Source of the DNA: Escherichia coli
GTDB taxonomy: Bacteria; Pseudomonadota; Gammaproteobacteria; Enterobacterales; Enterobacteriaceae
Strand: one strand, 5' to 3'
Length of the DNA stretch: 64,000 nucleotides
Assembly: GCF_016026235.1 (NCBI RefSeq)
Contig: NZ_CP065613.1
Shown here: positions 8,719-63,756 of the stretch, piece by piece
Position numbering within the stretch: position 1 is the stretch's first letter
How the letters are laid out: each line of letters opens with the position of its first letter
Made by a program: the position numbers and the translations under genes
Notes under the pieces: generated by a model
Database searches by the model: none
The model's input: the letters and a program-made list of their open reading frames with translations, nothing else
Told to the model about the DNA's origin: nothing

Positions 8719-9113
8719 GCTTTATCGAAGCAAAATAAGTCAGACGATAATTTATCGATAATACTGGTCGGTTTTACATAAATCGACCAGAGAATAAGAT
8801 ATTACTGTTGATGCTTCTGCTAATTCATTATTTATATTTATAATTTCAATTTTATCTATAAAACTAACTATATAAATAAACATAAACATGCCGTTGTGTT
8901 CGCCCTTTGATTAGCAACTCTGGTTTTCTTTCTTAGCTGAACAATCTGGTTATAGCGTGCGGACTGACCGTTAATTTTCTCCATCTTACTGGATAACACA
9001 CCATGAACTGCTACTTTTAAAACACCTGAATGTCAACAGGTTAACTCGTGCCATATCGGGTGATGCTGCCAACTTACTGATTTAGTGTATGATGGTGTTT
9101 TTGAGGTGCTCCA

Positions 9114-9389
9114 GTGGCTTCTGTTTCTATCAGCTGTCCCTCCTGTTCAGCTACTGACGGGGTGGTGCGTAACGGCAAAAGCACCGCCGGACATCAGCGC
9201 TATCTCTGCTCTCACTGCCGTAAAACATGGCAACTGCAGTTCACTTACACCGCTTCTCAACCCGGTACGCACCAGAAAATCATTGATATGGCCATGAATG
9301 GCGTTGGATGCCGAGCAACTGCCCGCATTATGGGCGTTGGCCTCAACACGATTTTACGTCACTTAAAAAACTCAGGCCGCAGTCGGTAA
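9114..9389 (+). CDS. insA: IS1 InsA (transposition inhibitor / N-terminal part of InsAB' transposase)
   Basis: 91-aa [25 protein letters not shown]... Confidence 0.95.
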
Positions 9390-9811
9390 CCTCGCGCATA
9401 CAGCCGGGCAGTGACGTCATCGTCTGCGCGGAAATGGACGAACAGTGGGGCTATGTCGGGGCTAAATCGCGCCAGCGCTGGCTGTTTTACGCGTATGACA
9501 GTCTCCGGAAGACGGTTGTTGCGCACGTATTCGGTGAACGCACTATGGCGACGCTGGGGCGTCTTATGAGCCTGCTGTCACCCTTTGACGTGGTGATATG
9601 GATGACGGATGGCTGGCCGCTGTATGAATCCCGCCTGAAGGGAAAGCTGCACGTAATCAGCAAGCGATATACGCAGCGAATTGAGCGGCATAACCTGAAT
9701 CTGAGGCAGCACCTGGCACGGCTGGGACGGAAGTCGCTGTCGTTCTCAAAATCGGTGGAGCTGCATGACAAAGTCATCGGGCATTATCTGAACATAAAAC
9801 ACTATCAATAA
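9308..9811 (+). CDS. insB: IS1 insB reading frame (expressed as InsAB' transposase by -1 frameshift)
   Basis: 167-aa frame overlapping insA 3' end; AAAAAAC slippery motif near 9364. Confidence 0.9.
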
Positions 9812-9837
9812 GTTGGAGTCATTACCGGATTAGTGTG

Positions 9838-22064: not shown

Positions 22065-22264
22065 TTTATGAATTTAGCCAAAGCTATGTTTAGTGTATTT
22101 TTAATAATCAGACATAGCTTAGGCTATATTATCTCTTCCCTTATTTGTTATTTATATTAACGTTTCATTGATATATAAATCTAAATGAAAATCGTTATCA
22201 ATAAAGCAATGAAATAATATATTCCAACAGTTGTTTTATATTCTCAAAATATGTTAAGGTTGCG

Positions 22265-27078: not shown

Positions 27079-28452
27079 ATGCCAAAAGTTCAGGCCGACG
27101 GCCTGCCGTTGCCCCAGCGATACGGTGCGATATTAACCATTGTGATTGGTATTTCGATGGCTGTCCTTGACGGCGCAATCGCCAACGTAGCCCTGCCAAC
27201 AATCGCCACGGACCTTCATGCCACGCCAGCCAGTTCCATCTGGGTAGTGAACGCCTATCAAATCGCCATTGTCATCTCCCTGCTCTCGTTTTCGTTTCTG
27301 GGTGATATGTTTGGCTATCGACGTATTTATAAATGCGGTCTGGTCGTTTTTCTGTTGTCTTCACTGTTCTGCGCCCTTTCTGATTCGCTGCAAATACTCA
27401 CCCTTGCGCGTGTCATACAAGGTTTCGGCGGTGCAGCGTTGATGAGCGTTAATACCGCCCTTATCCGCCTGATCTATCCACAACGTTTTCTGGGTAGAGG
27501 GATGGGCATAAACTCGTTTATTGTTGCCGTCTCTTCTGCTGCCGGGCCGACAATTGCTGCAGCAATCCTCTCCATCGCATCCTGGAAATGGTTATTTTTA
27601 ATCAATGTACCGTTGGGTATTATCGCCCTGCTTCTGGCGATGCGTTTTCTGCCACCCAATGGTTCTCGCGCCAGTAAACCCCGTTTCGACCTGCCCAGCG
27701 CCGTGATGAACGCGTTAACCTTCGGCCTGCTTATCACTGCGTTGAGTGGTTTCGCTCAGGGGCAATCGCTGACGTTAATTGCTGCGGAACTGGTTGTAAT
27801 GGTTGTCGTTGGTATTTTCTTTATTCGCCGCCAGCTTTCTCTTCCAGTACCGCTGCTACCGGTGGATTTACTGCGTATCCCGCTGTTTTCACTTTCTATT
27901 TGCACATCTGTTTGCTCTTTCTGCGCACAAATGCTGGCAATGGTTTCCCTGCCCTTTTACCTGCAAACCGTGCTCGGGCGTAGTGAAGTCGAAACAGGTT
28001 TACTTCTGACACCGTGGCCGTTAGCAACGATGGTGATGGCTCCGTTGGCAGGCTATTTGATTGAACGCGTACATGCAGGATTGCTGGGTGCTTTAGGATT
28101 ATTCATCATGGCTGCGGGGCTTTTTTCCCTGGTTCTGCTGCCCGCGTCACCTGCGGATATCAATATTATCTGGCCGATGATCTTATGTGGCGCTGGATTT
28201 GGCTTGTTCCAGTCACCCAATAACCACACCATTATTACCTCCGCTCCTCGCGAACGTAGCGGTGGAGCCAGTGGCATGTTAGGAACGGCTCGTCTACTGG
28301 GTCAGAGTAGCGGCGCGGCGCTGGTGGCGCTGATGCTAAATCAGTTTGGAGATAATGGTACACACGTCTCGCTGATGGCTGCGGCTATTCTGGCAGTGAT
28401 TGCTGCCTGTGTCAGTGGTTTACGTATCACTCAGCCACGATCCAGGGCATAA
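27079..28452 (+). CDS. yebQ: MFS transporter YebQ
   Basis: Recognised as YebQ; start taken at MPKVQADGLPLPQRYG inside the 494-aa track ORF. Confidence 0.8.
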   Translation: MPKVQADGLPLPQRYGAILTIVIGISMAVLDGAIANVALPTIATDLHATPASSIWVVNAYQIAIVISLLSFSFLGDMFGYRRIYKCGLVVFLLSSLFCALSDSLQILTLARVIQGFGGAALMSVNTALIRLIYPQRFLGRGMGINSFIVAVSSAAGPTIAAAILSIASWKWLFLINVPLGIIALLLAMRFLPPNGSRASKPRFDLPSAVMNALTFGLLITALSGFAQGQSLTLIAAELVVMVVVGIFFIRRQLSLPVPLLPVDLLRIPLFSLSICTSVCSFCAQMLAMVSLPFYLQTVLGRSEVETGLLLTPWPLATMVMAPLAGYLIERVHAGLLGALGLFIMAAGLFSLVLLPASPADINIIWPMILCGAGFGLFQSPNNHTIITSAPRERSGGASGMLGTARLLGQSSGAALVALMLNQFGDNGTHVSLMAAAILAVIAACVSGLRITQPRSRA

Positions 28453-28482
28453 AAAAAGCGCGTCGATCAGGACGCGCTTTTT
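28453..28482. terminator. bidirectional terminator between yebQ and htpX
   Basis: aaaaaaagcgcgtcgatcaggacgcgcttttt hairpin flanked by A and T runs. Confidence 0.55.
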
Positions 28483-28497
28483 AGTATTTACTTCATA

Positions 28498-29379
28498 TTA
28501 CTTCAGGTATTCACCCGTACGCAGAGCTTCAATTCGTTTATCCAGCGGCGGGTGAGTCATGAACAACTCACTGAGCGATTTCGACTTACCGTTAATGCAG
28601 AAAGCCATCATGCTGGTTGCTTCTTGCGGTTCATAGCTGGTTTTCAGGCGCTGCAGCGCGGCAATCATTTTCTCGCGACCAACCAGTTTTGCCGAACCGG
28701 CATCTGCATGGAATTCACGATGACGCGAGAACCACATGGTGATAATGCTCGCCAGAATACCAAACACCAGTTCCAGAACCGTTGCAACCGCAAAGTAGAT
28801 CAGCGGGTTGCCGTTGCTCTCTTCACCTTCATCACGATTTCCGCCCATAAAACCCGCGGTAAGCTGCGCCAGGATACGGGAAATAAAGATAACGAAGGTG
28901 TTCACCACGCCCTGAATCAGCGTCATGGTGACCATATCACCATTGGCGATGTGGCTGATTTCGTGAGCAATTACCGCCTCGGCTTCATCCGGGCTCATGT
29001 TCTGCAGCAAACCGGTGCTGACAGCAACCAGAGAGGCATCACGGCGCGCACCGGTTGCAAAAGCGTTGATGTCCGGCGCATGGTAGATAGCCACTTGCGG
29101 CATAGCGATCCCCGCCTGACGAGCCTGGGTTGCTACAGTATTGACCAGCCAACGTTCCCTTTCGTTACGCGGTTGCTCGATCACTTCCCCGCCAACAGAT
29201 CGTAATGCCATCCATTTGGACATCAGAAGCGAAACGAAGGAACCACCAAAACCGAACAGCAAGGCCATGATCATCAGCCCCTGAACGCTGCTCGACTGTA
29301 TCCCTGTCAGGCTCAGTACCAGCCCGAAAACGACCATTACGGCCAGGTTCGTTAGCAGGAAGAGCGCGATTCGCATCAT
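28498..29379 (-). CDS. htpX: heat-shock membrane zinc metalloprotease HtpX
   Basis: 293-aa ORF with HEISH zinc motif. Confidence 0.9.
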
Positions 29380-29570
29380 AATTTTCTTTTTACCTCAGTT
29401 TAACAAAACGCAATATGCGATACCCACATCGTATGGGTTACGCGACTATTTTCAAGTCTGGATAGTGCGTAAGTCACCAGAAAGACACAACTTTACATTT
29501 TGTAGCATCTGATTTACGGCATCTTGCCGCTGTTAAAAAATCAGGCACAATTTCTTGTGCCTGATTGATA

Positions 29571-31619
29571 TTACTTGACGGGTGCGGGTTGTTCCGCGGG
29601 TCTGGCTTTTTCAAGCTTCGCCAGATCGAGTGCGATATTCACCGTCTCATCCAGATAAGGATCCGGCTCCTGGTAATCTTTCGGTAGATCATCCAGTTTC
29701 TTCAACTCCGGTTTACCTTCGCGTTTAAAGCGTTCGTTCAAACGCGCCAGACGCGTCGCATCATCTTCATTATTCTCTTTCTCACGCACAGCGTAATTCA
29801 GAGAAACGATATTGCGCTTGTCCTTCATAGCGTTGAAGCGCGCGATATCCTTCATGATGTTCTGGAACTCAGGATCTTTCGCGATACGCGCATTATGTTC
29901 CTTCAGTAGCTCCGGTTCAAAGGCCGTTAAATCTCCTGATTTCACATAAGTCGCGGCATCAATGCTATCCCACGGCAGCGCGTTATCTTCGAATTTCTCA
30001 CCCGTTTCCGTTTCTTCATTACCCGTCGGCATGATGATGTCTGGCGTTACGCCTTTACGTTGCGTACTGCCGCCGTTAACGCGATAGAATTTCTGGATCG
30101 TGTACTGCACAGAACCCAGCGCTGGCCATTCAGGACGTAACATCTGATCGTAAATACGGTTCAATGAACGGTATTGCTGAACGGTGCCTTTACCAAACGT
30201 CGGTTCACCCACAACCAGCGCACGACCGTAATCCTGCATTGCCGCGGCAAAGATTTCTGAAGCCGAAGCACTGAAGCGGTCAACCAGTACCACCAGCGGG
30301 CCTTTATAGAAAACCTGTCCGTCGGTATCGCTGCCTTCACGAACTTTACCGTTGTTATCACGGACCTGAACAATAGGACCCGCAGGAATAAACAGACCTG
30401 AGAGCGATACCGCTTCGGTCAACGCCCCACCGCCATTGCTACGCAGGTCGATGATCACACTGCTGACATTCTGTTTTTCCAGTTTCTGCAGTTGTACTTT
30501 GACATCGTCTGTCAAACCCACATAGAAGCCAGGAATATCCAGCACGCCGACTTTCTCTTTACCGACGGTCTTCACCGACATTTTAACCGCGCGGTCTTCG
30601 AGACGAATACGTTCACGGGTCAATGTTACAGTGCGGGTCTTGGTCCCTTTACCAGCAGGTAAAATTTCCAGACGAACTTTACTGCCCTTCGGCCCTTTAA
30701 TTAAGGCAACCACATCATCAAGACGCCAGCCAATCACGTCAACCATCGGCTTGCCTGTTTGACCAACACCGACAATTTTGTCACCAACGCTGATAGCTTT
30801 ACTCTTCGCTGCCGGACCACCTGCCACCATCGAATTGATAACGGTGTAGTCATCATCCATTTGCAGCACTGCGCCAATACCTTCCAGCGACAAACTCATT
30901 TCAGTGTTGAACTGTTCGGTATTACGCGGGGAAAGATAGTTGGTATGCGGGTCGATTTCACGCGCAAACGCCGTCATTGCCAGCGAGAAAACATCTTCGC
31001 TGTTGGTTTGCGCCAGACGACGAATGGCAAATTTGTAGCGGCGTGTCAGGGTTTCACGAATTTCTTTATCCGTTTTTCCTGCCAGCTTCAGGCTTAACTC
31101 GTCGAATTTAACTTTACTGTCCCACAGCGCGTTCAACTCAGCCTCGTTTTTCGGCCAGGGCGCTTTGCTGCGGTCAAGGTTATAAGTGTCGTTGCCGGTG
31201 AAATCCATCGGCTTTTCCAGTACCGACAAAGCGTACTGGTAACGCTCAAAACGGCGCTTTTGCGCCAGATTGTAGAGATCGTAGAAAACGTCGAGTTTGC
31301 CTGAACGCAGTTCATCGCCTAACTCGGTTTTCTTTTTCGCGAACTGTTCAACATCGCTTGCCAGCAGCACGTTGTGGCTGTAATCGAGCAGATTCAGGTA
31401 ACGGTCAAAGATTTTGGCCGAAAATGCCTGATCGAGGTCGAACTGGCGATAATGAGAACGGGTGAAGCGCGACGTTACGCGCTCACTTACCGTCGCATGC
31501 TGCGTCTCTTCCTTTAATACCGGAATTTGATCAGCACGCGTGATATCTTCTACAGCGAAGGTCTGGCCTGCTATTGCAAACAGGCCAGCTAACGCGGTAA
31601 GCCTAAAAAACATGTTCAT
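29571..31619 (-). CDS. prc: tail-specific (C-terminal processing) protease Prc
   Basis: Recognised as Prc; start taken at MNMFFRLTALAG inside the 698-aa track ORF. Confidence 0.9.
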   Translation of the reverse strand: MNMFFRLTALAGLFAIAGQTFAVEDITRADQIPVLKEETQHATVSERVTSRFTRSHYRQFDLDQAFSAKIFDRYLNLLDYSHNVLLASDVEQFAKKKTELGDELRSGKLDVFYDLYNLAQKRRFERYQYALSVLEKPMDFTGNDTYNLDRSKAPWPKNEAELNALWDSKVKFDELSLKLAGKTDKEIRETLTRRYKFAIRRLAQTNSEDVFSLAMTAFAREIDPHTNYLSPRNTEQFNTEMSLSLEGIGAVLQMDDDYTVINSMVAGGPAAKSKAISVGDKIVGVGQTGKPMVDVIGWRLDDVVALIKGPKGSKVRLEILPAGKGTKTRTVTLTRERIRLEDRAVKMSVKTVGKEKVGVLDIPGFYVGLTDDVKVQLQKLEKQNVSSVIIDLRSNGGGALTEAVSLSGLFIPAGPIVQVRDNNGKVREGSDTDGQVFYKGPLVVLVDRFSASASEIFAAAMQDYGRALVVGEPTFGKGTVQQYRSLNRIYDQMLRPEWPALGSVQYTIQKFYRVNGGSTQRKGVTPDIIMPTGNEETETGEKFEDNALPWDSIDAATYVKSGDLTAFEPELLKEHNARIAKDPEFQNIMKDIARFNAMKDKRNIVSLNYAVREKENNEDDATRLARLNERFKREGKPELKKLDDLPKDYQEPDPYLDETVNIALDLAKLEKARPAEQPAPVK

Positions 31620-31638
31620 GCCTGGCCCGGCCTCCGTT

Positions 31639-53818: not shown

Positions 53819-54155
53819 GTCATTCTCCTTAAGTTAACTAACCCGGTACTTAAGCCAGGGTATACTTGTAATTTTCTTACGGTGCACTGTACTGCTTTTA
53901 CGAGCTTGCGAAAACTGTAAACGCTTATCCACCCGTGCGATTACGGTAAAAGCGCGCAAAGTGCGGCAAAACTGATAAAAAAATCATCGTTTTCCATTGG
54001 GTAAAAATCTGACACTGATCATGTTATGAAAAAAAATAACAACTTTTTTATCTGCTTTTGTCATTAACACAGCACACAGGCGTAATATCTGACAAAACTG
54101 CATTTCGATTTCTTTCAGTGCGGAAATCGTCATTACCCGTGAGTCTCTTTACATC

Positions 54156-57697: not shown

Positions 57698-57816
57698 GCT
57701 TTTCCAGTTTCGGATAAGGCAAAAATCAATCTGGTGATAGTGTAGCGGCGCAACTTGCCCCGCACCAAATAAAAAAAGCCGGTACTGACTGCGTACCGGC
57801 TGCGAATGGATGTTAA

Positions 57817-59139
57817 TTAATCAAACCGTAGCTGCGGCACAATCTCTTTGGCCTGCGCCAGGAATTCGCGACGATCGGAGCCGGTCAGCCCTTCGGTACG
57901 CGGCAGTTTTGCCGTCAGCGGGTTTACGGCCTGCTGGTTTATCCATACTTCATAGTGCAGATGCGGCCCGGTTGAACGTCCGGTATTACCGGAAAGCGCG
58001 ATACGGTCGCCACGTTTCACCTTCTGTCCCGGTTTCACCAGAATCTTGCGCAAGTGCATATAACGCGTGGTGTAGCTGCGACCATGACGAATAGCCACAT
58101 AATAACCTGCTGCGCCACTGCGTTTGGCAACCACCACTTCACCGTCACCCACTGAAAGCACTGGCGTACCCTGCGGCATGGCGAAATCAACACCTCTGTG
58201 TGGTGCAACGCGACCGGTCACCGGATTAGTACGACGCGGGTTAAAGTTAGACGAGATACGGAACTGTTTCGCCGTCGGGAATCGCAAGAATCCTTTCGCC
58301 AGACCAGTACCGTTACGATCGTAGAATTTGCCATCTTCAGCGCGGATAGCGTAATAATCTTTACCTTCTGAACGCAAACGTACGCCCAGCAGCTGGCTTT
58401 GCTCACGTTTACCATCAAGCATTTCTCGAGACATTAATACCGCAAATTCATCGCCTTTTTTCAGTTTGCGGAAATCCATTTGCCACTGCATGGCTTTAAT
58501 CACTGCGCTCACTTCGGCGCTGGTCAAACCGGCGTTTCTGGCGCTGGCAACAAAGCTCCCCCCGACGGTACCTTTCAGCAGATTGTTAACCCACTCTCCT
58601 TGCTGCATTTCGCTGGTCATTTTAAAACCGTTAGCGGCAGTACGGTCATAGGTTCGGGTTTCACGACGAGACACTTCCCAGGTGAGGCGCTGCAGTTCGC
58701 CGTCCGCGGTTAATGTCCAGGAGAGTTGTTGACCGATTTTCAGGTTACGCAATTCTTTGTCGGCCGCAGCCAGTTGGGTGATATCACCCATATCAATACC
58801 ATACTGATTGAGAATGCTGCTTAGCGTATCGCCAGTGGAAACAACATATTCATGCACGCCCGCTTCACCGGCGATTTTGTCATCCAGTTCGTCCTGGGGA
58901 ATGGCTTCATCTTCTTGTGCAGCTTGATCAATCGGCTCACTGGCTTCAGGTAAGAGCGAACGAATTTCGTTCTGTTCCAGCTCAATGGTTTTGACAATTG
59001 GCGTGGCATCGCGGTGATAAACATAGGGCCGCCAGACAGCGACGGCCAGAGTAAGAACGGTGAGCGACCCCAACATAACGCGGTGTGGTCGCGGTAAATT
59101 ATTAAACGCCAGGGCGACAGAGCGGGCTATCTGTTGCAC
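57817..59139 (-). CDS. mepM: murein DD-endopeptidase MepM (YebA), LysM plus M23 peptidase
   Basis: 440-aa ORF recognised as YebA. Confidence 0.9.
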
Positions 59140-59154
59140 GTAATCACTTCCTCA

Positions 59155-60087
59155 TTAATCTCCTTTCAGGCAGCTCGCATACTGGTTGGCTAATTGACTC
59201 AGGAATTCTGAATAGCTTGTTTTACCCAGTTTGATATTCGTCCCCAGGGGATCCAACGTTCCCATACGAACGGATGTCCCTCGTGCGACGCTCTCAACGA
59301 CCGCTGGCCTGAACTGTGGCTCAGCAAAAACGCAGGTTGCTTTTTGCTCAACCAACTGTGTTCTTATTTCATGTAAACGCTGCGCGCCAGGTTGAATCTC
59401 AGGGTTAACGGTAAAATGACCAAGCGGTGTCAGTCCGAACTGTTTTTCGAAATAGCCGTAAGCATCGTGAAAAACGTAATAACCTTTCCCCTTGAGCGGC
59501 GCGAGCTCGTTACCAACCTGCGTTTCGGTTGAGGCTAATTGTGCCTCAAAATCCTTCAGGTTGGCGTCAAGTTTGGCTCGACTTTGCGGCATAAGTTCCA
59601 CTAATTTTCCATGGATTGCAACCGCTGTAGCCCGCGCTATCTCTGGGGAAAGCCAAAGATGCATGTTGAAATCGCCGTGATGGTGATCTTCGTCACTTTT
59701 TTCCGCGTGGTCGTGATCATCATCATCGCTGTGAATACTTTTCATAAGTAGCGGTTTCACATCTTCAAGCTGCGCAATCGTTACCTGCTTCGCTTCTGGT
59801 AATTTGCTTACCGGTTTTTGCATAAACGCTTCCATCTCCGGGCCAACCCAAACGACTAAGTCCGCGTTCTGTAAGCGTTTTACATCCGATGGACGCAGTG
59901 AATAATCATGTTCTGAAGCGCCGTCAGGAAGTAAAACCTCCGTTTCTGTTACCCCATCAGCAATGGCAGAAGCGATGAACCCAACGGGTTTAAGCGAAGC
60001 GACAACGGCGGCATCTGCGGCCTGTGTTGCACCTCCCCAGAGAGCGGCGGATAATGCTGCGAAAAGAAGCGTTTTTTTATGTAACAT
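59155..60087 (-). CDS. znuA: zinc ABC transporter periplasmic binding protein
   Basis: Recognised as ZnuA with His/Asp-rich loop; start taken at [19 protein letters not shown] inside the 352-aa track ORF. Confidence 0.9.
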
Positions 60088-60116
60088 AATGCGACCAATC
60101 ATCGTAATGAATATGA

Positions 60117-60139
60117 GAAGTGTGATATTATAACATTTC
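60117..60139. promoter_or_regulatory. Zur operator in the divergent znuA / znuCB promoter region
   Basis: Palindrome GAAGTGTGATATTATAACATTTC between divergent znuA and znuC. Confidence 0.7.
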
Positions 60140-60165
60140 ATGACTACTGCAAGACTAAAATTAAC

Positions 60166-60921
60166 ATGACAAGTCTGGTTTCCCTGGAAAATGTCTCGGT
60201 TTCTTTTGGCCAACGCCGCGTCCTCTCTGATGTGTCGCTGGAACTTAAACCTGGAAAAATTTTGACTTTACTTGGGCCAAATGGCGCAGGTAAGTCGACA
60301 CTGGTACGGGTAGTGCTCGGGCTGGTAACACCCGATGAAGGGGTTATCAAGCGCAACGGAAAACTGCGCATCGGCTATGTACCGCAGAAGCTGTATCTCG
60401 ACACCACGTTGCCACTGACCGTAAACCGTTTTTTACGCTTACGCCCTGGTACACATAAAGAAGATATTTTGCCTGCACTGAAACGTGTCCAGGCCGGGCA
60501 CCTGATTAACGCACCGATGCAAAAGCTCTCGGGTGGCGAAACGCAGCGTGTACTGTTAGCGCGAGCATTGTTAAATCGCCCGCAATTATTAGTGCTGGAT
60601 GAACCCACTCAAGGCGTGGATGTAAATGGCCAGGTGGCGTTATATGACCTTATTGACCAACTGCGTCGTGAACTGGATTGTGGCGTTTTAATGGTTTCTC
60701 ACGATCTGCATCTGGTGATGGCAAAAACCGATGAAGTGCTGTGCCTGAATCACCACATTTGTTGTTCCGGCACACCGGAAGTTGTTTCCCTGCATCCGGA
60801 GTTTATTTCAATGTTTGGTCCTCGTGGTGCTGAACAACTGGGTATCTATCGCCATCATCATAATCATCGTCACGATTTACAGGGACGAATTGTTTTGCGT
60901 CGGGGAAATGATCGCTCATGA
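60166..60921 (+). CDS. znuC: zinc ABC transporter ATP-binding protein
   Basis: 251-aa ORF with Walker [10 protein letters not shown] and His-rich C-terminus. Confidence 0.9.
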
Positions 60922-61703
60922 TTGAATTATTATTTCCCGGTTGGTTAGCCGGGATCATGCTCGCCTGTGCCGCGGGTCCGCTGGGTTCGTTTGTAGTCTG
61001 GCGTCGTATGTCTTATTTCGGTGATACGCTGGCTCATGCCTCATTACTTGGTGTCGCGTTTGGTTTGTTGCTGGACGTGAATCCATTCTATGCGGTAATT
61101 GCCGTTACGCTGCTGCTGGCGGGCGGTCTGGTATGGCTGGAGAAGCGTCCACAGCTGGCGCTCGACACATTATTAGGGATTATGGCGCACAGTGCCCTGT
61201 CGCTGGGCCTGGTGGTCGTTAGTCTGATGTCTAACATTCGTGTTGATTTGATGGCTTACCTGTTCGGTGATTTACTGGCAGTGACGCCAGAAGATCTCAT
61301 CTCTATTGCGATTGGCGTGGTCATCGTGGTGGCTATTTTGTTCTGGCAATGGCGCAATTTGCTGTCGATGACGATTAGCCCGGATCTGGCGTTTGTTGAT
61401 GGTGTGAAATTACAGCGAGTGAAATTGTTGTTGATGCTGGTGACGGCATTGACGATTGGTGTAGCGATGAAATTTGTCGGTGCGTTGATTATTACTTCGT
61501 TGCTGATTATTCCTGCAGCTACTGCGCGTCGCTTTGCCCGTACGCCGGAACAGATGGCTGGTGTCGCTGTTTTGGTGGGGATGGTGGCAGTAACTGGCGG
61601 TTTAACCTTTTCCGCGTTTTACGATACGCCGGCGGGTCCGTCGGTGGTGCTATGTGCGGCACTGTTATTTATTATCAGTATGATGAAAAAGCAGGCCAGC
61701 TAA
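60918..61703 (+). CDS. znuB: zinc ABC transporter permease
   Basis: 261-aa hydrophobic ORF overlapping znuC stop. Confidence 0.9.
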
Positions 61704-63551: not shown

Positions 63552-63756
63552 AAGGATGAAGAAAACTTGCGAGGTGTCTCGATGAACTGAAAAATGGCAC
63601 AGTATAATTTATTCTACAGGTTATATTGGAAGCAAATATTTTAATATTACATATTCAGTGAAGAAATGCGTAATAAAAATATACATTGCGCCTCCTGAAA
63701 AAATAAATTTTTTATGCTATTACGTATATTCGTATCTATTTCAATGGAATGACAAC

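Follow-up and report, generated by a model that had tools for sequence, protein, structure and literature searches.

The znuA/znuC region and its surroundings

The window (the whole stretch of E. coli DNA analyzed here, 64,000 nucleotides long) carries znuA and znuCB as two divergent units, and its annotated neighborhood reads yebY-copD(yebZ)-yobA / holE ... lpxM-mepM-znuA / znuC-znuB ... ruvB-ruvA. The features that flank the divergent gap are as follows:

57777-57801, minus strand: terminator-like hairpin with a T-run directly after mepM (9-pair stem, 6 of the pairs G-C, then TTTTTTATTT)
57817-59139, minus strand: mepM (yebA), zinc-dependent murein endopeptidase, 15 bp downstream of znuA
59155-60087, minus strand: znuA, periplasmic zinc-binding protein (933 nt, ATG at 60087), repressed from the operator described below
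60088-60165: divergent znuA/znuC gap, 78 bp
60166-60921, plus strand: znuC, ATPase subunit and first gene of znuCB (ATG at 60166)
60918-61703, plus strand: znuB, permease subunit, with a 4-base overlap with znuC

The mepM gene is probably co-transcribed with znuA from the Zur-controlled promoter. It has been reported to be induced by zinc starvation and co-transcribed with znuA (literature including PMC7705223), and no terminator-like structure was found in the 15-bp znuA-mepM gap; the hairpin at 57777-57801 is likely the end of the znuA-mepM transcript. Besides znuACB, yebA (mepM) is the gene of this window that the literature ties to Zur and zinc.

The wider window contains two IS1-like copies (9053-9830 and 40000-40768) that are ~91% identical to an IS1 of NZ_CP065615, and the second of these ends ~180 bp from yebY. 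The window matches NZ_CP065615 only over 40768-63799, and 28000-42000 is ordinary core E. coli sequence with prc, yebQ, yebS, yebT and rsmF. The IS1-like copies and the partial match to NZ_CP065615 suggest an IS-rich strain of E. coli/Shigella type. Of 5426 complete E. coli genomes, 5425 have a 901-bp stretch around the znuA/znuC gap, and their annotation names the flanking genes znuA and znuC.

An earlier note on this DNA had placed a palindrome in the 78-bp divergent promoter region and had called it a Zur operator between znuA and znuCB. Reading the window directly, we find the 23-mer GAAGTGTGATATTATAACATTTC at 60117-60139 inside the gap, so its sequence and coordinates and the length of the gap are all as that note gave them. 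The palindrome is imperfect: nine of the eleven half-site pairs are complementary (the exceptions are 60120/60136 and 60124/60132), and because of this a repeat finder returned the inner 9-nt palindrome alone (60125-60136). No other 23-mer in the znuA/znuC intergenic region has at least 9 of 11 complementary pairs, but about 22 in the 64-kb window do, and we rejected palindromy as evidence for an operator on this ground. The symmetry of 60117-60139 taken alone is within what chance gives in 64 kb; it is the match to the Zur motif that exceeds chance.

Zur motif matches and conservation

Three overlapping features, none of which has a strand assigned to it, describe the site:

60117-60139: Zur box in the classical gamma-proteobacterial format GAAGTGTGATA-T-TATAACATTTC, dyad at 60128, with 20 of 22 specified positions matching
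60121-60140: structure-derived E. coli two-dimer Zur pattern TGWNAYRWTATAWYRTNWCA (pattern from PMC4219657), 0 mismatches
60121-60136: evolutionarily conserved core TGTKATAWTATAACAT, from box-anchored column statistics and an unanchored MAFFT alignment of 78 intergenic regions

The 23-mer has two mismatches to the 23-bp Zur consensus GAAATGTTATANTATAACATTTC and is the only match in the window at three or fewer mismatches; the same scan of 100 shuffles gave 0 matches at this threshold. Written as the pseudo-palindromic consensus GAAATGTTATA-N-TATAACATTTC, the motif is again matched at 20 of its 22 specified positions. The two-dimer pattern, with its RNNNY dyads, fits 60121-60140 (a stretch that includes the 18-mer RNNNYRNNRYNNYRNNNY at 60122-60139), and ~0.16 chance matches to it at two or fewer mismatches are expected per window. 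We also built a symmetrized leave-one-out matrix from the MG1655 zinT, ykgM and pliG operators, from which the znu site was left out to avoid circularity. In the matrix scan of the window that the earlier note had proposed as a check, 60117-60139 ranks first of ~64,000 positions with 24.5 bits, while the runner-up has 13.1 bits and the best scores in 200 shuffles have a mean of 13.3 and a maximum of 21.1 bits. The site is thus recognized by a matrix made from independently validated Zur operators.

Three other Zur-like sites in the window were rejected as chance. One at 63633-63655 has 13.1 bits and is at least 151 bp upstream of where ruvA starts, another at 54018-54040 has 12.7 bits, and a left half-site in AT-rich intergenic DNA at 22210-22233 (GAAATAATATA...) has 12.9 bits and two mismatches to the 20-mer, with its right half unmatched. 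All three score at the level of shuffled sequence (mean best 13.3 bits).

Is the box conserved where the noncoding DNA around it is not? A ZnuC search gave 80 loci from different Enterobacterales species and Gilliamella (Enterobacterales/Orbales), 452 kb in total. All 80 have znuA and znuC divergent, with a spacer of mostly 74-80 bp, and nearly all have a Zur box at the same place. In the unanchored alignment of 78 spacers, 60121-60136 is the conservation maximum of the spacer, its columns carrying 1.3-2.0 bits each apart from G/T position 60124 (0.8); elsewhere the spacer is mostly at ~0-1 bit per column, and the core also stands above the adjacent coding flanks. An exact copy of the core GTKATAWTATAACA occurs in 65 of the 80 loci; in 57 of these it starts 41-45 bp before the znuC ATG, and it is essentially absent elsewhere in the 452 kb. 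The element is therefore conserved at its orthologous position while the flanking noncoding DNA diverges. Its outer arms, at 60117-60120 and 60137-60139, show little conservation from genus to genus (60139, for example, is most often G and is C here), which puts the functional unit closer to 15-18 bp than to 23; judged from these alignments, the constrained unit is the 7-1-7 core plus one base rather than the full 23-mer. Both deviations of the E. coli box from the consensus sit in the left arm. The left-arm deviations or the outer-arm divergence may relate to the comparatively weak affinity of the znu operator for Zur.

The 23-bp box is identical to that of K-12 MG1655, as found in a comparison of 138 bp (the intergenic region plus 30-bp flanks). 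The sole difference in the 138 bp is at 60100, between the Zur box and the znuA start codon, which is C in the window and A in MG1655. Since the box is identical, the published work on the K-12 sequence applies to it directly. That work includes zinc-dependent Zur binding and Zur-dependent repression, by footprint, EMSA, crystal structure and RT-PCR in a zur deletion (PMC4219657, PMC6103462). Footprinting of the K-12 operator showed 31 protected nucleotides, and the crystal structure (PDB 4MTD) has two Zur dimers bound cooperatively on opposite faces of znuABC promoter DNA (PMC4219657, PMC6103462). Each dimer reads RNNNY-xxx-RNNNY through Arg65 and Tyr45, and the crystallized operator includes an extended -10 site for RNA polymerase (PMC4219657). 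The apparent Kd is 8.2e-18 M^2, and in vivo repression of znuC is 6.6-fold (PMC4219657, PMC6103462). Directly observed here are the sequence and position of the site, the fact that it is unique in the window, its identity with K-12 and its conservation.

Proposed promoter elements within the box and other explanations

The RNNNY rule and inspection of the region give the following predicted elements:

60122-60134, no strand: predicted element of Zur dimer 1, GTGAT-ATT-ATAAC (RNNNY-xxx-RNNNY), placed by the rule of PMC4219657
60127-60139, no strand: predicted element of Zur dimer 2, ATTAT-AAC-ATTTC, placed by the same rule (PMC4219657) and offset by 5 bp from that of dimer 1
60123-60131, plus strand: candidate extended -10 of the znuCB promoter, TGaTATTAT, inside the Zur box, read by eye
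60127-60135, minus strand: candidate extended -10 of the znuA promoter, TGtTATAAT, inside the box and overlapping the plus-strand -10, read by eye
60147-60152, minus strand: conserved block TTGCAG, candidate -35 for znuA, with spacings of 14 bp to TATAAT and 16 bp to TAATAT

The structure-based pattern puts the dyad at 60130/60131, and the classical 23-mer and the conserved core are centered near 60128; the internal periodicity of the sequence lets it fit either register. A promoter scan of 59950-60300 found no canonical -35/-10 pair, which appears to fit promoters of the extended -10 type, and sigma-70 elements have been reported to overlap the Zur box in E. coli and Erwinia (PMC7705223). We infer the exact -10 and -35 assignments at znuA/znuCB from motifs read by eye and from published statements.

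The spacer has a second conserved noncoding block at 60145-60152, TACTGCAA (TTGCAGTA on the minus strand), in which 60148-60152 are 85-100% identical across 78-81 Enterobacterales spacers at a fixed spacing from the Zur box. This block probably serves as the -35 (TTGCAG) for znuA, and its match to a marbox is weak. We think it unlikely that it is, beyond a simple -35, a place where another regulator binds and tunes the transcription that Zur controls; if it were, the candidates could be an uncharacterized c-di-GMP-dependent input reported in Erwinia or the SoxS or ZntR inputs reported in E. coli.

The earlier note had in addition counted yobA-yebZ-yebY among the reported Zur targets, which would make these genes a second Zur-controlled unit in the same window. 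We consider this very improbable and found no support for the statement. A Zur scan of the region upstream of yobA (42476-42613) was negative: the best site there has mismatches at 11 of the 22 consensus positions and six to the 20-mer, and with 2.8 bits it ranks 147th in the window. There is no Zur box in this region, and the genes are outside the published E. coli Zur regulon, which consists of znuABC, zinT, ykgMO and pliG (PMC4219657, PMC6103462, PMC11618457). In the incomplete literature that was covered we found no report of Zur or zinc control of yobA-yebZ-yebY, which is a lack of evidence for such control and not evidence against it. In the one paper where yobA, yebZ and Zur occurred together, Zur appeared solely in the reference list; yobA was not found paired with "zinc limitation" in the literature searched, and the 15 results ranked highest for broader zinc terms had neither yobA nor yebZ. 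The earlier note's own statement is all that speaks for the idea; yobA and yebZ are metal homeostasis genes, the metal being copper (PMC11923076). The note probably mixed up yobA and yebA (mepM), the gene next to znuA on its downstream side, and this illustrates that such gene lists need checking. The DNA upstream of yobA has a short inverted repeat of its own at 42483-42510, TGTAA-N8-TTACA within TTTTGTAATAACTTTTTTACAGAG, which is not Zur-like.

Could the palindrome be a mere by-product of two overlapping, opposed -10 elements, which are TATAAT-like and self-complementary, with no repressor site present? Extended -10-like motifs do lie on both strands inside the element, and equally symmetrical 23-mers occur elsewhere in the window (above). 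The conservation, however, is not confined to the -10 hexamers and takes in GT (60122-60123) and ACAT (60133-60136); the motif is found again at zinT, ykgM and pliG, none of which is a divergent promoter; and Zur binding to exactly this sequence has been published (PMC4219657, PMC6103462). The two roles are moreover compatible, in that the operator would work because the -10 elements lie in it. We therefore give almost no credence to a promoter by-product that lacks a repressor site.

That the site belongs to another Fur-family or stress regulator instead of Zur, as a Fur box or a MarA/SoxS/Rob marbox, is just as hard to credit. Fur-family boxes are all AT-rich inverted repeats, SoxS control of znuACB has been reported (PMC12818246, referring to Warner & Levy 2012), and partial ZntR-like sequences that overlap Zur boxes have been described (PMC11618457), but SoxS and ZntR are presented in these two papers as layers beside Zur that do not replace it. 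The best intergenic match to the Fur box GATAATGATAATCATTATC has 7 mismatches in 19 and lies outside the palindrome, and the window holds at least 140 matches that equal or surpass it; on this count of at least 7 mismatched positions out of 19, we excluded the reading as a Fur box. The best marbox match, at 60134-60153 on the minus strand, has 4 mismatches, as do 609 matches in the window.

Zinc control from the operator and its relation to known systems

The element at 60117-60139 is almost certainly the Zur operator of the bidirectional znuA/znuCB promoter. The consensus, the structure-derived pattern, the matrix, the identity with K-12 and the conservation across 80 loci agree in this with the first proposal made for the site, and we found no evidence that contradicts its identity as a Zur operator. 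It is an already known, textbook element that has been characterized to atomic resolution, and its identification here adds no new biology.

Its action can be pictured as follows: when free zinc in the cytoplasm is sufficient, zinc-loaded Zur (a Fur-family repressor) would bind as two cooperative dimers on opposite faces of the DNA, each reading a purine-N3-pyrimidine dyad (60122-60134 and 60127-60139). The operator would hold the overlapping -10 elements of both promoters, so that one complex would exclude RNA polymerase from both, and with the two -10 elements in one box a single site would thus control both divergent units. The outcome would be joint repression of znuA (with the downstream mepM) and znuCB. 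As zinc falls, Zur would lose its regulatory zinc and leave the site, and the high-affinity ZnuABC importer would be made. The Zur binding, stoichiometry, cooperativity and ~7-fold in vivo repression that this model presumes are carried over from the literature on K-12. The amount of ZnuABC is set by this site, and enteric pathogens depend on that importer for growth when the host sequesters zinc; the znu operator also serves as the reference for structural and kinetic work on Fur-family repressors. It is also useful as a positive control, as a known 23-bp operator that was located to the base from sequence alone.

The closest known system is the E. coli K-12 znuA/znuCB operator itself (Patzer & Hantke 1998, 2000; Gilston et al. 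2014; PDB 4MTD), which has the same box, the same 78-bp spacing and the same flanking genes. There is no functionally relevant difference between the two; the window is another E. coli-type strain with IS1-like insertions elsewhere. The site resembles the Fur box GATAATGATAATCATTATC in being an AT-rich inverted repeat that lies over a promoter and is bound by a Fur-family dimer or dimer pair, and it is unlike the Fur box in that the Zur readout uses Tyr45 in addition to Arg65 (PMC4219657).

Outside E. coli, the Yersinia pestis znuA/znuCB site is at the orthologous position, with its core GTAATATTATAACAT 45-27 bp before znuC (PMC2706843). That Zur site has been footprinted with DNase I and overlaps the -10 of both promoters (PMC2706843), and the Yersinia loci of our comparison (L062, L065 and L067) have the same box. 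The outer arms in Y. pestis are unlike those of E. coli, and a second, box-less footprint has been reported there (PMC2706843). The Erwinia amylovora znuA/znuC spacer is also 78 bp, and sigma-70 elements overlap its box (PMC7705223).

Within E. coli, the zinT, ykgM (L31p) and pliG operators have the core TGTTAYAWTATAACA and the RNNNY dyads in common with the znu site, and the published accounts have all of them overlapping promoters of zinc-uptake or zinc-sparing genes. The znu site differs from these three in its two left-arm deviations, G at 60120 and G at 60124. It binds Zur ~150-300 times more weakly than zinT or L31p do, and repression is ~7-fold at znu versus 560-980-fold at zinT/L31p (PMC4219657). 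The znu operator is the only one of the four E. coli Zur operators that serves two divergent promoters.
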